Source: a virus
Taxonomy: Duplodnaviria > Caudoviricetes
Virus record (IMG/VR): IMGVR_UViG_3300042258_000071
Span: 64,001 to 128,000 of that record
Length of the DNA stretch: 64,000 nucleotides
Strand: one strand, 5' to 3'
Notes under the pieces: generated by a model
What the model was told of the DNA's origin: nothing
The model's input: the letters and a program-made list of their open reading frames with translations, nothing else
Databases searched by the model: none
Shown: positions 6,689-41,020 of the stretch, piece after piece
Layout: every line of letters starts with the position of its first letter
Numbering within the stretch: position 1 is the stretch's first letter
Position numbers and translations under genes: made by a program

Positions 6689-6698
6689 TATATATTAC
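6689..6698 (+). promoter_or_regulatory. Early-type promoter motif TATATATTAC
   Basis: Contains the phiKZ early consensus TATATTAC. Upstream of a small non-structural ORF. Confidence 0.6.
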
Positions 6699-27948: not shown

Positions 27949-27958
27949 TATACATTAC
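27949..27958 (+). promoter_or_regulatory. Early-type promoter motif TATACATTAC
   Basis: Upstream of the 28045 ORF / peptide / structured-RNA unit. Confidence 0.5.
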
Positions 27959-28044: not shown

Positions 28045-28347
28045 ATGACTGATACTAATACCACCAAGAACCCAAGCACAGATACAGATACCGCACACCC
28101 ACCGGCGTTGGACGATCTGTCCTTTTTGTATACCACTACGGCCGGTGAAGGTGACAACATTGTCACCTTCAAAGAACAAGACTTTTTCAAGTTTCGGCAG
28201 GAACTTGAAGCGTCTGCCGCCAGACGTGGCGTTTGGAAAGGTGCCGGTATTACTCTCGCCACCGTTGCGGTGGTCGGGGCCGCTCTATGGGCGATCCCAA
28301 AAATGGTAGGTGGTGGGGGTGGAGACACCTCCCCTGCTGAAGTCTAA
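28045..28347 (+). CDS. Small C-terminally anchored membrane protein (early)
   Basis: Strong RBS AAGGAG. TM segment GAGITLATVAVVGAALWAI. TATACATTAC at 27949. Confidence 0.7.
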   Translation: MTDTNTTKNPSTDTDTAHPPALDDLSFLYTTTAGEGDNIVTFKEQDFFKFRQELEASAARRGVWKGAGITLATVAVVGAALWAIPKMVGGGGGDTSPAEV

Positions 28348-28353
28348 CAACTC

Positions 28354-28390
28354 AAGATAACCACGGAGGGTTACCCTCCGTGGTTATCTT
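28354..28390. terminator. Intergenic palindrome
   Basis: AAGATAACCACGGAGGG-TTA-CCCTCCGTGGTTATCTT. Confidence 0.7.
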
Positions 28391-28415
28391 CTTTAACCTC
28401 AAACACAGGTGCCCC

Positions 28416-28499
28416 ATGGCAAACTTCATCTATTTTATATTTGCAGTGATAGGTTTGATATACGTATTTCATCTGGCTTTTCGCGGCAGAAATATGTAA
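28416..28499 (+). CDS. Unannotated 27-aa hydrophobic peptide MANFIYFIFAVIGLIYVFHLAFRGRNM
   Basis: ATG 28416 preceded by ACAGGTG. One TM helix with a basic tail. Below the ORF-track length cutoff. Confidence 0.5.
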   Translation: MANFIYFIFAVIGLIYVFHLAFRGRNM

Positions 28500-28517
28500 T
28501 GCCCTTAATATTATTAA

Positions 28518-28948
28518 GCACATACAGGTCATCATCTTCATCCTGTATGTGCGTGACTTATACACATATACTTTTTGATTTTATAAAAGTATATCTTTAT
28601 ATGTCTCAAGCTTAAGTATATCAGAATTCATGTTGCCTTAGATCCCTGTTAAGTGCTACGAATAGGGTCTCCCGTATGTCATATACAGGGTATGAGTGTA
28701 ACATGAATAGGAGAGGGGTGTTTGGAGTTTGAGATCCCAGACATGCTTCTCTTAAGATTTCTATGATGTGGGCTAGTCAGGTATGCGCCCTTTCCATAGA
28801 AATCTACGAGGACTGGAGGTGATATGATGAAGGTCATCTCCAGTCCTCACCCTATACTTGTTGTTCACTCAACAAGGAAACTCGAAGAGAGATACATCCA
28901 GGTGTCGTTCCCCCAGAACCCATGGATGTGTCTCTCTTCTTTTTTTTT
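28518..28948 (+). ncRNA. Candidate highly structured non-coding RNA (tandem stem-loop array)
   Basis: Eight consecutive stems read by eye, several with G-U pairs on the + strand. The tract ends in a stem plus a long T-run. No credible ORF. Confidence 0.55.
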
Positions 28949-28968
28949 GTAAATAATTTAATAGGTAG

Positions 28969-29004
28969 AGATAAGAGAGGTGGGATCTCCCACCTCTCTT
29001 ATCT
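28969..29004. terminator. Palindrome at the end of the lysis cassette
   Basis: AGATAAGAGAGGTGGGA-TC-TCCCACCTCTCTTATCT followed by a T-run. Confidence 0.8.
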
Positions 29005-29027
29005 TATTTTTTTTTATGGTAAAGAAT

Positions 29028-29507
29028 TTATTTACCTGACTCTTTAGGTTGCACATCTTTTGTGATAGGAACTTCCACTTCTTTGACAAACAAATCTTTA
29101 AACGTGTCACTTCTATAATAATCAAATAACTGATTACTCTGTTCGATATACCGAAGGATGTCTTGGTTGTAAGATCCTAAAAGAAGGTAATCTTTTTCAG
29201 TAAGACCATAATACACAAAAGGACCATTAGAGCTTAATATTAAAACACATTCACGTTGAGCATCTTCAGTGGTCGTAACTTTCTTACAAATGGTCTGGGG
29301 AGTAAGAACGGTAATGGTGTCAATGTGTCCTAAGTTTCGAATCGGAGTAGGCTTTGCAGGGTGAAAGACACTAATCGGTTGCGTGCGTTTCTCCACGACT
29401 AGCGGCTCTGATACTGTCGAGCACGCGATTAGTGGCAGCAGTAGCAAGACGACTGATGGCTTCAGGGTTTTGAAGAGCGATACGATCCAATCGCTCACGA
29501 TACTCAT
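29028..29507 (-). CDS. o-spanin (outer-membrane lipoprotein)
   Basis: Signal peptide with lipobox VLLLLPLIA-C, Pro-rich segment. Overlaps the 3' end of the i-spanin in another frame. Confidence 0.7.
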   Translation of the reverse strand: MSIVSDWIVSLFKTLKPSVVLLLLPLIACSTVSEPLVVEKRTQPISVFHPAKPTPIRNLGHIDTITVLTPQTICKKVTTTEDAQRECVLILSSNGPFVYYGLTEKDYLLLGSYNQDILRYIEQSNQLFDYYRSDTFKDLFVKEVEVPITKDVQPKESGK

Positions 29508-30347: not shown

Positions 30348-30900
30348 AGAAGGATATTGTTAGATCGCCAGCTTGCGCTGCAGCGATCACTTTCTTATAC
30401 AATCTTTCGTATGCAATGGCAGAGCTGCCAATAGACATATTTTGTGCATTGGCAGATGTTCCAACTAAGAGACACCCATTTGTATTACGATCAAAGTTTC
30501 CAACATGAATCAAAATATCTGTGAATCCTGGGACGCCTTTAATTTCAAGCATCCCTTGGTGGAAGTCTTTAAAACGAGAATCTTCCGAATATCGACTGTG
30601 GAACCCCCCAAATGTACGAACAATAACTTTGTAGGTACCTGCCGGGATACGCGTTTCACCAAAGACTTTCTGTTTAAGAGGTCGATACTCATCTTCAAGA
30701 CCATAACATTCAAATTTTTTGTCGATACTTATACGAGATAGCGTGGCATTAGGGTTTCCAAGATAACGGTCAACTTCTAAATGCATGGAGGACTCCTTTG
30801 GGAGATGGTGTGGAGACACAGTAATGTGTGGGGTAGGTGGGGTTTTAGGAGAACGAGTGAAGATATTTATTAAGAATTTAAGTACAGATTTCACACACAT
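30331..30900 (-). CDS. DUF5675-type (YkuD/L,D-peptidase-like) putative endolysin
   Basis: T-LED...K-GETRIPAGTY...GML-I--VPGF--ILIHVGN----TNGCLLVG. First gene of the lysis cassette. Confidence 0.7.
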   Translation of the reverse strand: MCVKSVLKFLINIFTRSPKTPPTPHITVSPHHLPKESSMHLEVDRYLGNPNATLSRISIDKKFECYGLEDEYRPLKQKVFGETRIPAGTYKVIVRTFGGFHSRYSEDSRFKDFHQGMLEIKGVPGFTDILIHVGNFDRNTNGCLLVGTSANAQNMSIGSSAIAYERLYKKVIAAAQAGDLTISFYDNDR

Positions 30901-31033
30901 TTCTCCTTAATAAAAGTCAGTTAAATCTTATGACAAGAGGGTAGAGAAACGTATACATCCAATTGATATGTCAAAAGAGGCTACATAAGCCACTCCTTCG
31001 TCCCCATAGTATTTTCCTAAGGACATTCCCAAC

Positions 31034-32071
31034 ATGGTTGTTAGTACAGATTTCAATCGCATGATTGATTCGATGAGTCTTACGTCTTCTGAGGTCCGTA
31101 AATTCTTAGATAACGGAATGGTCACGCTACATGTCGATGAGGATAATGTTACACCAGAAACAACTTTCAACACCTGTGTAACGCGCTTCATTGGTGATCT
31201 TGAAAACTACGGTATTTCAATCACGCTTCCCTTAGAGGACATTTTCTTAAATTGGAGACGTATTGATAGATTCTTTAAATTTACAACATACCTTCTTCCT
31301 GAAGGGTTAGGGTTCAAGTTAACCTCAGATGACACATTTTATCATCAAGTTCTCATGATCTTAAATGGGTCATATGGGGAAGAAGGGGATGTCTTTACAC
31401 AATACCTTAACCTCCTTAAAGAAGTTGAAGGAGGTCGATATGAAGGGATCGTTGAAGACCTTCTCGGAAATATCTATGCCTCCCCTATTTTTACCATATA
31501 CCTTAATAACATTTTTAAATATGTCACCGATACAAAATCTAAAGAAGTCTCAGAAGAGCAACTAACTCTTGTACGTGAGTACATTAAAGAACTGTCCTCA
31601 ACCATGTTCTTTACGTTAGATACCCTAGATGTGCAACTTAATCTAGGAGTCTCATTAGAAAAGATTGATAAGCGCATTACAATTTACTGTCAGCAACTTC
31701 GAAATATTGATCATATCGTAAAATTAGCTTGGCTCATAGACTTTCAAAAAAGGAAGGCTCAAAAGAAGAATATTTTATATGAAGAAATTATGCTAGAGAC
31801 CATTTACACGAGAACCATTTTAAATTCAACCAAATTAAATCCTGAACATTGGAAATACCTAGATGTAAAACCTGATGTAGCTGATATATTTGGCATGTTA
31901 GCATGGCGATATGCAAGTTCTAAAATAGCTAGAAAAGACGTCATTCTTAAAGAATGTTTTATGTCGATGGATCTCGATGTCTTACCACGAGATCAGTATT
32001 TTAAAATGGAAATGATGGTTAAGAAATTTGATGGGAGAGTATCACAGATGGATAATAAGGCTTTAACCTAA
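31034..32071 (+). CDS. Hypothetical/virion protein upstream of the vRNAP subunit (phiKZ gp79-like position)
   Basis: 345 aa with RBS AAGGA. Coupled (TAATG) to the RNAP gene. Confidence 0.5.
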   Translation: MVVSTDFNRMIDSMSLTSSEVRKFLDNGMVTLHVDEDNVTPETTFNTCVTRFIGDLENYGISITLPLEDIFLNWRRIDRFFKFTTYLLPEGLGFKLTSDDTFYHQVLMILNGSYGEEGDVFTQYLNLLKEVEGGRYEGIVEDLLGNIYASPIFTIYLNNIFKYVTDTKSKEVSEEQLTLVREYIKELSSTMFFTLDTLDVQLNLGVSLEKIDKRITIYCQQLRNIDHIVKLAWLIDFQKRKAQKKNILYEEIMLETIYTRTILNSTKLNPEHWKYLDVKPDVADIFGMLAWRYASSKIARKDVILKECFMSMDLDVLPRDQYFKMEMMVKKFDGRVSQMDNKALT

Positions 32072-38924: not shown

Positions 38925-39028
38925 TACTGTGATGTCTCTTTAATAAAAGTTTATAGGACCTCCTGATCTTATGTGGTCGTATGAATTTGTTAAGTTATTT
39001 ACCTCAAAATAAAGGAAAAAGGTTACCC

Positions 39029-40657
39029 ATGACCGAGTTAGACCTTTCCTATGAAGATGGCAGTATCGCAACGCTTAAAGGTCTTGCGATCATGCGACAG
39101 TCTCCTTCTGCATATCTTCCAGATGCCGAGCATCGGGGTATCTCTCATCTTATTATTGAAGCTCTTGATAACTCTGGTGACGAAGTTCTTTTAAAAGGGG
39201 AACATGGTCAGATTGAAGTTATGTTGTGCCCTGACCCTAAACGTCAAACTGTACAAGTTATCATTGGGGATAATGGACGTGGTATCCCTCTTGGGGACAT
39301 GTGGCGTGCTCTTACACAGCCAAGTTCTTCTGGTAAATTTAACCCTAAAGGAGGCGCTTACCAGTATAGCTCTGGGCAATTCGGTGTCGGGGGTAAAGTT
39401 ACAGCAGGACTGTCCCAAGATTATCGTGCCATCAGTTATCGTGGTAAAGATGGATATGGATCTCTCCATGTTCACAAAGGGGACCATCCAGATGAGAATG
39501 TGTGGACTAAGAAGTATCTCCATCGTGACATCAAGACCGATCGAACAGGTGTTCTTACCATACTGGAGCCCGACTCCGACATTTTCACAGGGGTAGAGTC
39601 TTATTGCCCTGAAGGATGGTTTGCACTTATTGAGCGTATGAAAAAGTATGCATTCTTTCACCCTCTAACCAATATTAAATTTTATCAATCCTCAAAACCC
39701 CTCCCATCAAATGTATGGACTGTAGATCTAAGTGGTATTGATAAGATTCTAAAAGATACGATTGCAAACTCTGCGATCATTTTTGACTCTCGTACATTTG
39801 ATCGTGAGTCATGGCTGAACAATTATCTTGGGGTAAGTAAGCCCTTCGTGTGGAGCCATCATTTCATAAAACATGCCGAACCACCCAATGATAGTCTGAT
39901 GTGTGATATCCGTATACTGTATCATGATAAGGACACTGCAGCAGCTAAACTTGGGATGGTTAATTCGGTTCCTATTGACCACGGTTCTAGTAATCACATT
40001 TCAGAGCTCCTTTCCACGCTTAAAGAGAGACTTGAAACTCAGATCTCAGATAAAGCTATTCGGACGTTTTTTAAAGAGACCTACCGTCTCCCAATTTATC
40101 TTACTGTAAACGTTAAATATCAAGGTGCTAAATTTAGTGGGACAACAAAGGATGCATTCTTCTCTCAAAAATTTAGGGATGACTACAACGAGTATCTAAA
40201 CCAGTACTTCACAAAGACAGCAGAGGGTAAGGCCTCCATTGAGGAGTTGTATGCTCTTTTAGAACCTGATATTACTGAAAAATATCTTGCGTCTATAAAT
40301 GGGGCGTCTGTTGTTAAAGTTGAAAACCGTCTCTTTAAAGATCTTGCGAACCCTAATAAGTTTGCAAACTGCTTTGCTAAAGATCGTAGTGAAGCAACGC
40401 TTTTTCTTGTAGAGGGGGATTCTGCTGGTCGTGGGGTTGCTAAACTTCGTGATGGGGAGACGATGGGGATTTACTATATGAAAGGTAAATCTCTTAATGG
40501 TTTTGCCAAATGGGGTCGGGATCAAATTTCTCGTGAGATCCGTAAAAAGAAGTATGGGACGTATCACGATATCCTTAAAATTCTGAAACTCGATCCTGAT
40601 AACCCTAATCTTAATAGTCTCTATTATAACAAACTCGTAATAATGACAGACGCAGAT
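39029..40657 (+). CDS. gyrB: Type IIA topoisomerase/gyrase B subunit, exon 1
   Basis: EALDNSGDE, DNGRGIP, SSGKF, GQFGVG, LFLVEGDSAG, ending at LVIMTDAD at the intron 5' splice site. Confidence 0.9.
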
Positions 40658-41020
40658 TAAAGAATTATAGTCCACCTGATTAGAAATAATCATAGTGAAT
40701 CTTCCTTAATTGCTGGAAAGTCCTAAAGCCACATGCACTACAACGTAGTTGGAAACGACAAGCGTGATAGTTCAAAAAGCATATGGATATATGGACGATC
40801 AGCAGCGAAGCGCCTTATACATGTCGTGATGACAGCAGTGTGGTGAACGTTCAACGACTAACCGGTTGCGCGGAGTAGGGGTCAAGGGACCTCGAAATAG
40901 GAAGCATCTAAGAGTCCTTAAGGATTTAGGATGAAGATATAGTCTCGGCATATGAGGAAACCTCATAGCAGTGCTTAAGTGCACGGGTAGAGTGACAACC
41001 TAACTTTACTGAAGATATCG
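40658..41020 (+). mobile_element. Group I self-splicing intron (IA2-like), no ORF
   Basis: The exon ends in U and the intron ends in G. P1 GAU/UA..UAGUC; P3 CUUCCU(40701)/AGGAAG(40899); P4 UGCUG(40711)/CAGCA(40800); R GUUCAACGACUA; S AAGAUAUAGUC; P7 GACUA/UAGUC; P8 and P9 hairpins. Splicing restores MTDAD-SHGKHI in frame. Confidence 0.92.

Follow-up and report, generated by a model that had tools for sequence, protein, structure and literature searches.

Between a small early transcription unit and a convergent lysis cassette of an uncultured jumbo phage lies a tract of eight inverted repeats (positions 28518–28948), which raises the question whether this stretch acts as an RNA of its own, as part of a messenger or as a DNA element. 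The initial annotation had taken it for an undescribed jumbo-phage ncRNA. The analysis presented here bears out an undescribed structured RNA of the + strand, which may be either an independent ncRNA or the 3′ part of an early mRNA.

Genomic environment of the hairpin array

The window, i.e. the entire stretch of 64,000 nucleotides that was analysed, corresponds to bases 64001–128000 of a 236,443-bp IMG/VR virus record with direct terminal repeats. The source phage is an uncultured, phiKZ-like jumbo phage of 236 kb. Its DNA polymerase is 25–28% identical to those of phiKZ-like jumbo phages (Serratia, Erwinia, Ralstonia and others), and the phage also encodes a divergent chaperonin, an RNase H and a group I intron. 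The latter (40648–40968, + strand; Rfam RF00028, 74.5 bits) interrupts a gene starting at 38981 and is the sole Rfam match of the window at the gathering threshold. Only one diverged relative was found (Logan run SRR22428450, contig L016). It has the same gene order at the locus, and the homologous gap measures about 670 nt. The elements of the locus are, from left to right, an early promoter, a gene for a 100-aa protein, the hairpin T1, a 27-aa ORF, the hairpin array, the terminator T3 and the convergent lysis cassette.

The early-type promoter assigned to this region by the initial annotation is represented by a phiKZ-type promoter core, TATACATTAC, at 27949–27958 (+ strand). The same motif is present at the homologous place in the relative (L016:11494–11503), and the core at 27949 is the probable start of the transcript that carries the hairpin RNA. 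Throughout the 236-kb genome, TATA[CT]ATTAC is found in 23 copies on the + strand and in one copy on the − strand, every one of them followed by T-A/T-N3-TGA. The motif resembles the promoter strings of phiKZ (TATATTAC) and 201phi2-1 (PMC7058600, Table 2), and its 23 copies on one strand and single copy on the other provide a ready-made map of probable early transcription units. Within the window, early-promoter-like motifs are located at 6689, 27949, 41631 and 48728 (+ strand).

The first gene of the early unit (28045–28347, + strand, taken from the ORF list) encodes a protein of 100 amino acids with a C-terminal hydrophobic segment and is also called on the JGI and Logan contigs. In the relative, a 73-aa gene without detectable sequence similarity to the 100-aa protein occupies the same position (L016:11199–11420, − strand). 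Both proteins combine an acidic N-terminus with a C-terminal hydrophobic helix. The gene is followed by T1 (28358–28395, + strand), a GC-rich hairpin with a short U-rich tail that was read from the sequence and is possibly a partial terminator; the hairpin at this position in the relative has no U tract. Neither a sigma-70-like nor an early-type promoter was found between the 100-aa gene and the first hairpin of the array.

Situated directly 5′ of the array is an ORF for a single-helix membrane peptide of 27 amino acids (28416–28499, + strand) with a Shine-Dalgarno-like AGGUG. This ORF is unannotated; its product consists of a hydrophobic helix and a basic tail, as does the 31-aa version encoded at the same place in the relative (L016:11039–11134, − strand). 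In a six-frame comparison the two peptides are 41% identical over 27 amino acids (E 1e-4), and default BLASTP of one peptide against the other gave no alignment. The 27-aa ORF probably represents a real early micro-protein adjoining the lysis cassette. The JGI annotation places a 56-aa gene on the − strand (28371–28541), overlapping T1, the 27-aa ORF and the first hairpin; this call is probably spurious, and nothing corresponding to it is present in the relative.

Downstream of the array, the terminator scan detected T3 (28968–29015, + strand), a canonical terminator composed of a 17-bp hairpin (28968–29005) and U9. T3 is conserved, with a homologous hairpin and U8 in the relative, and is possibly bidirectional. 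Beyond it, the convergent lysis cassette on the − strand comprises spanin-like genes and a DUF5675 enzyme. The last gene of the cassette (29028–29396, − strand; PHROG Rz-like spanin) forms the right-hand border of the locus and encodes a spanin-like protein of 122 amino acids, which is 63% identical to that of the relative; only these two were found in a search of 5.8 billion proteins. Upstream of the cassette, a block of 12 nt, GTCATAAGATTT, is identical in both phages (window 30880–31040, − strand; L016:8515–8775, + strand). It may be part of the lysis-cassette promoter, and no recurrent copy of it was found elsewhere in the genome.

Overall architecture of the array

Minimum free energy (MFE) folding recovers all eight inverted repeats as hairpins of the + strand, in agreement with the stem-loops described initially. 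The array opens with H1 (28518–28552), an 11-bp stem whose 13-nt loop (28529–28541) carries the partner sequence of the H6 loop. H2 (28555–28605, core 28566–28594) is an AU-rich hairpin with a basal extension. It is followed by H3 (28626–28708), a long irregular hairpin ending in the tip UAGGNUCUCCCG at 28663–28674, and by H4 (28709–28753), a 17-position helix that requires several G-U pairs. H5 (28755–28805) is interrupted by a 4×4 internal loop (AUGU, 28766–28769; UUUC, 28791–28794). In H6 (28808–28848), a 16-bp stem carries the loop UAUGAUGAAGG at 28823–28833, and its 5′ arm holds a sequestered Shine-Dalgarno-like GGAGGUGAU. The short hairpin H7 (28857–28876) leads over to H8 (28884–28948), a 19-bp hairpin (28884–28939) with GUUCCCC (28907–28913) in its loop and a subsequent U9 tract (28940–28948), by which it adopts terminator form (T2). 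All eight hairpins are read on the + strand.

In one detail the fold departs from the initial description, which had assigned a multibranch structure to H3. The single irregular hairpin is predicted to be the more stable form in both phages, by 2.7 kcal/mol in the window and by 4.5 kcal/mol in the relative, although the multibranch form is possible as well. Both H8 with its U9 tract and T3 fit the form of an intrinsic terminator. U tracts are lacking after H1 to H7, so the array in its entirety does not represent a series of terminators. A tRNA-like array was likewise discarded, as ARAGORN found no tRNA in the hairpin region.

Folding energy and strand preference

With an MFE of −176.4 kcal/mol, the + strand of the window RNA is far more stable than its dinucleotide shuffles (−110.5 ± 5.5 kcal/mol; z −11.9). 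The − strand reaches −151.9 kcal/mol (z −8.4). An even larger asymmetry of 40 kcal/mol is displayed by the RNA of the relative, with −196.3 kcal/mol for the sense (z −10.7) versus −155.7 kcal/mol for the antisense strand (z −5.4). Among the 20 longest gaps of the genome, counted between ORFs of 70 aa or more, none folds with a lower energy per base than the hairpin gap (−0.404 kcal/mol/nt), which is followed by a gap with −0.341 kcal/mol/nt; the z values of this comparison are derived from few shuffles. Simulated random divergence of the observed size would lower the stability to −0.27 kcal/mol/nt, as compared with −0.46 and −0.41 kcal/mol/nt for the real RNAs (z −8.6 and −5.5).

Other ORF-poor gaps of low folding energy are located at −38636..−38290, 72615..73311 and 129233..129587 in window coordinates, all of them outside the window. 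Their energies amount to −0.34, −0.32 and −0.26 to −0.30 kcal/mol/nt, respectively, with rough z values of −7 to −14, and further structured RNAs may be contained in them.

The strand preference bears on the possibility that the palindromes operate at the level of DNA, as a replication origin, a packaging site or a protein-binding array. Such an element would suit the position of the locus, at distances of about 1.5 kb to the DNA polymerase gene and 0.7 kb to the RNase H gene, and the sequence conservation of H2 is what one would expect of a protein-binding site or a promoter. However, the stems contain 9 G-U pairs in the window and 14 in the relative, all of which would be C-A mismatches in the complementary strand, and the folding energies of both strands lie 25–40 kcal/mol apart. 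Furthermore, no GC-skew turning point is found nearby and the motifs are not repeated in the genome. The G-U pairs, the asymmetry between the strands and the absent skew signal thus contradict a function at the DNA level, which is considered highly improbable, and the idea of a replication origin was dropped for want of a skew signal. The G-U pairs were already taken to imply an RNA of the + strand in the initial annotation, and the weaker fold of the − strand is in line with that view.

Structural conservation in the diverged relative

The homologous RNA of the relative is located at L016:10601–11023. Encoded proteins of the two phages are 64% (RNase H), 65% (DNA polymerase), 66% (DUF5675 protein) and 54–63% (spanin-like genes) identical. 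Contigs of the same species (JGI 3300042259 and SRR35174882) are 100% identical to the window over the region and therefore uninformative.

In a global MAFFT alignment, the two RNA cores share 53% identical positions. The eight hairpins nevertheless all recur in the relative, in unchanged order and with stems of similar length. When Infernal models were derived solely from the window sequence, they located the homologous parts of L016, both for H5–H6 (model R1; 41 bits, E 1e-7) and, with filters off, for H3–H4 (model R3; 36 bits, E 8.5e-8). In the R1 alignment, 31 pairs of H5–H6 are 100% paired and 13 of them are changed on both sides, as against 0–1 when the partners are slid; in the R3 alignment, 97.6% of the 42 pairs of H3–H4 are paired and 18 are changed on both sides, versus 0–4 with slid partners. 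Combined, H3 to H6 comprise 73 pairs of which 98–100% are still paired and 31 are changed on both sides (slid-partner controls 0–4), although two sequences are too few for phylogenetically controlled (R-scape-type) covariation statistics.

The changes are distributed over most of the array. H3 contributes 26 pairs, all of them paired in both sequences and 11 changed on both sides, H4 contributes 16 pairs, of which 7 are double changes and 2 fail to pair in the relative, and the values for H5 and H6 are 15 pairs with 7 double changes (100% paired) and 16 pairs with 6 double changes, respectively. The same six double changes of H6 are obtained by structure-blind MAFFT alignment and RNAalifold, a procedure that also recovers, with double changes, parts of H2, H3, H7 and H8. 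H1 contains one double change from A-U to G-C and the basal extension of H2 contains two double changes, while H7 is conserved in sequence, with 5 shared pairs and no double change. For H8, a gap-free alignment of ambiguous register yields 10 double changes; the stem of the relative contains four G-U pairs and its U tract is weaker. In a hand-made, helix-anchored table of 125 pairs, 68 are identical, 13 are changed on one side, 38 are changed on both sides and 6 are paired in one sequence, and all such counts are approximate, as they are drawn from two sequences only, are inflated by alignments fitted to structure and involve ambiguous registers in H5 and H8.

Every helix, its length and its position in the order are thus retained by compensatory changes at only 53% identity, which is the mark of selection on structure. 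The tract at 28518–28948 constitutes an RNA-level structure of the + strand whose eight hairpins are under purifying selection. The abundance of compensatory change, albeit in a single relative, makes the hairpin RNA a real, conserved and uncatalogued structured RNA element.

Searches for further members

The initial annotation had recognised no RNA class in this tract. Among the 4227 models of Rfam 15, no family matches the hairpin region at the gathering threshold, at E≤10 the region gives nothing but sub-threshold hairpin noise, and with the RNA of the relative nothing is returned at E≤0.1. Among the outcomes that the initial annotation had named as refuting, folding no better than shuffles, a homologue lacking compensatory change and a known Rfam family could be checked, and each of these checks spoke for its proposal. 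The search for homologues extended over 5.8 billion proteins, IMG/VR, JGI metagenomes and GTDB genomes and included motif and model scans. Neither the window RNA nor that of the relative had a blastn match among 50,697 phage records. In IMG/VR, the invariant 19-mer of H2 retrieved 7 loci, all of them chance matches without further similarity, a three-motif pattern retrieved none, and none of the 19 loci retrieved with an H6 stem-loop pattern was matched by model R2. Nor did this model detect a paralogue elsewhere in the phage genome or any match in three records of distant jumbo phages.

Queries with the RNase H, DUF5675, spanin-like and DNA polymerase proteins in viral, metagenome and genome collections led to the one relative, the remaining matches being 23–41% identical. 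DUF5675 matches on P2-like prophages were set aside, because they lie in unrelated contexts. The hairpin RNA appears to form a separate family with two known members. This phage lineage is very rare (two genomes in billions of sequences) and still keeps an elaborate RNA.

The reading frame in the H6 loop

A six-frame comparison of both regions yielded only the upstream 27/31-aa peptide and a match that reflects the invariant nucleotides of H2, whose frames have no shared start. However, the AUG in the H6 loop opens a frame in both phages, of 42 codons in the window (28824–28952) and 28 codons in the relative. H6 could accordingly be a translational operator of a small ORF that starts at the AUGAUG in its loop, with the H1 loop as an anti-start element. 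A G-rich, Shine-Dalgarno-like run 4–5 nt before AUGAUG is kept in both RNAs, the frame is open in both, and the H1 loop is complementary to the start region. Yet the encoded peptides have no significant similarity (best match 6 residues, E 0.88), and base counting on the two folds reveals that the frames run out of register across H7. In addition, the frame would cross the covarying terminator stem H8 and, in the window, its U tract, and a 16-bp stem of about −27 kcal/mol sequesters the Shine-Dalgarno-like sequence. An operator function of this kind is judged to be very unlikely. The related idea that H6 mimics the start region of a phage gene was abandoned, as no similar start region exists.

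Invariant elements and pairing between the loops of H1 and H6

Despite the overall divergence, a small number of elements are unchanged: the apical 40 nt of H2, the tip of H3, the internal loop AUGU/UUUC of H5, the loop of H6 with its flanks, and GUUCCCC in the loop of H8. In H2 the apical part is nearly invariant, with 20 identical nucleotides at 28564–28583, and the motif is unique in the genome. Two promoter assignments were tried for H2 and rejected. As a second early promoter it has no ATTAC core, and its sole near-copy lies inside a gene; a middle or late promoter motif common to H2 and the region upstream of the lysis cassette was not upheld, as no recurrent motif emerged.

The loop of H1 behaves differently, since it differs in length and sequence between the two phages and is otherwise unalignable. 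Nonetheless, the complementarity between the loops of H1 and H6 that was noticed initially is kept: a pairing of 7 bp is predicted for the window (ΔG −7.0) and one of 8 bp for the relative (ΔG −9.6), in overlapping registers. Among shuffled H1 loops, 38 of 2000 for the window and 1 of 2000 for the relative reach an equal pairing with H6, and H1 with H6 is the strongest loop-loop pairing common to both RNAs. As the H6 loop is invariant, this contact cannot covary.

The conserved loops might also be regulators in their own right, in which case the array would be a precursor that is cut by RNase III or RNase E into several small RNAs. Long and nearly perfect stems of 16–19 bp in H4, H6 and H8 would agree with such processing. 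So would the invariant, AU-rich loop of H2, UGAUUUUA, which resembles sequences preferred by RNase E, and the conserved C-rich loops UCUCCCG and GUUCCCC, which look like seeds for pairing with Shine-Dalgarno sequences. On the other hand, comparison of the conserved loops with the start regions of the neighbouring lysis genes gave nothing convincing as a target, and the conserved complementarity of H1 and H6 suggests one folded unit instead of independent pieces. A precursor role is hence regarded as distinctly improbable.

Proposed function

Taken as a whole, the locus is best explained by a folded, early-transcribed ncRNA domain that is compacted or multimerised by kissing loops and acts as a scaffold or decoy, an explanation that is put forward tentatively and with a little less than even confidence. 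Its anatomy would imply that the RNA is transcribed at an early stage of infection, by read-through from the phiKZ-type promoter at 27949, as the 3′ part of a transcript of roughly 1 kb that also encodes the two small membrane proteins. Transcription would end at H8-U9 or at the conserved terminator at 28968–29015, and thus stop before the convergent lysis genes. Within the RNA, the covarying stems could serve as rigid spacers, while the kissing contact of 7–8 bp between H1 and H6 would either close the chain into a compact body or join copies of the RNA. The H2 hairpin, the H3 tip UCUCCCG, the internal loop of H5 and the H8 loop GUUCCCC may then be the surfaces that bind a protein or RNA partner.

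Since no promoter of its own was found and T1 is placed between the early promoter and the RNA, the array may instead be a purely cis-acting 3′ UTR. This main alternative, which is possible but doubtful, would have the hairpins shield the early mRNA of the two membrane proteins from 3′ exonucleases, and the array together with its tandem terminators would insulate the lysis cassette by blocking early + strand transcription that would otherwise enter it in antisense orientation; nothing would act in trans. The array indeed lies directly 3′ of the 27-aa ORF with no promoter detected between them, two terminators in succession close it shortly before the lysis genes of the opposite strand, and the relative has the same layout. 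However, protection or termination would require no more than one or two hairpins, U tracts are confined to H8 and T3, and the spacers at other convergent gene ends of the window measure only about 70–140 nt. A 3′ UTR would leave unexplained why seven further helices keep their lengths at 53% identity, and likewise the invariance of specific loops, of the 4×4 internal loop and of the whole H2 hairpin.

A more specific version of the scaffold or decoy model is an early jumbo-phage RNA of a new class that folds or self-assembles through the kissing loops of H1 and H6 and captures a host factor by its invariant loops, be it ribosome-associated, RNA-degrading or immune. This version is considered unlikely. 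If true, the RNA would represent an RNA-only device for host takeover or counter-defence without any homologue among proteins or RNAs. Irrespective of the function, eight helices have outlasted about 47% divergence, and the few invariant loops mark the probable contact surfaces.

Comparison with known systems

Several characterised RNAs share single features with the hairpin RNA. The pRNA of phi29, an RNA of about 174 nt that is part of the packaging motor of small podoviruses, assembles into a higher-order structure by pairing between complementary hairpin loops. Complementary loops are also a feature of the hairpin RNA, which in contrast has no match to the pRNA models of Rfam and resides in the genome of a phiKZ-like jumbo phage. 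Sponges of the CsrB/RsmZ type are strings of hairpins closed by an intrinsic terminator and act as protein decoys by means of GGA repeated in their loops. The string of hairpins and the intrinsic terminator are found here as well; however, GGA is absent from all hairpin loops of the window RNA and occurs in only two loops of the relative.

The mRNAs of type I toxin-antitoxin systems (hok/sok, tisB, aapA1) are similar in that a tiny hydrophobic ORF, here of 27 or 31 aa, is carried on a structured transcript with potential long-range pairing, and both ORFs have the small, hydrophobic, toxin-like character of this class. In the window, however, the whole structure lies 3′ of the ORF and leaves the start region of the ORF outside. 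The H6 loop is complementary to codons 3–6 of the 27-aa ORF of the window, a complementarity that is absent in the relative, and neither an antisense RNA gene nor a convincing − strand promoter was found at the locus.

Closer in scale are ROOL (RF03087) and GOLLD (RF02032), large and ornate RNAs of phages and prophages that were seen by cryo-EM to form homo-oligomers (PMC12286853). Like these, the hairpin RNA is a large, structured and putatively non-coding RNA borne by a phage, and in ROOL and GOLLD conserved loops make RNA-RNA contacts. In contrast, the hairpin RNA is smaller (about 430 nt) and is built as a near-linear string of hairpins instead of multi-way junctions, and its loop-loop contact is predicted from complementarity only. 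The models of both families have no match in the hairpin region even at E≤10, and they are absent in the relative.

Small RNAs of the chimalliviruses 201phi2-1 and phiKZ, which were mapped by ONT-cappable-seq, are bounded by the phages' own promoters and terminators (PMC11512511). They are shorter than 250 nt and mostly stem from premature termination in 5′ UTRs, e.g. upstream of the tail gene gp182/gp277, and for one of them both position and fold are maintained between genera (PMC11512511). The hairpin RNA resembles them as a putative ncRNA of a phiKZ-like jumbo phage that is accompanied by a phage promoter and terminators. It differs from 201phi2-1 sRNA005 and the phiKZ gp182 leader in its length of about 430 nt and in its position next to the lysis genes, where it forms the 3′ end of an early unit, and does not belong with them.

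In conclusion, the hairpin RNA is a member neither of ROOL/GOLLD nor of the chimallivirus sRNAs. Jumbo nucleus-forming phages have been studied mainly through their proteins, and what is known of their RNAs amounts to a few small sRNAs in cultured Pseudomonas phages. The hairpin RNA would extend the so far short list of large structured phage RNAs by a new family.
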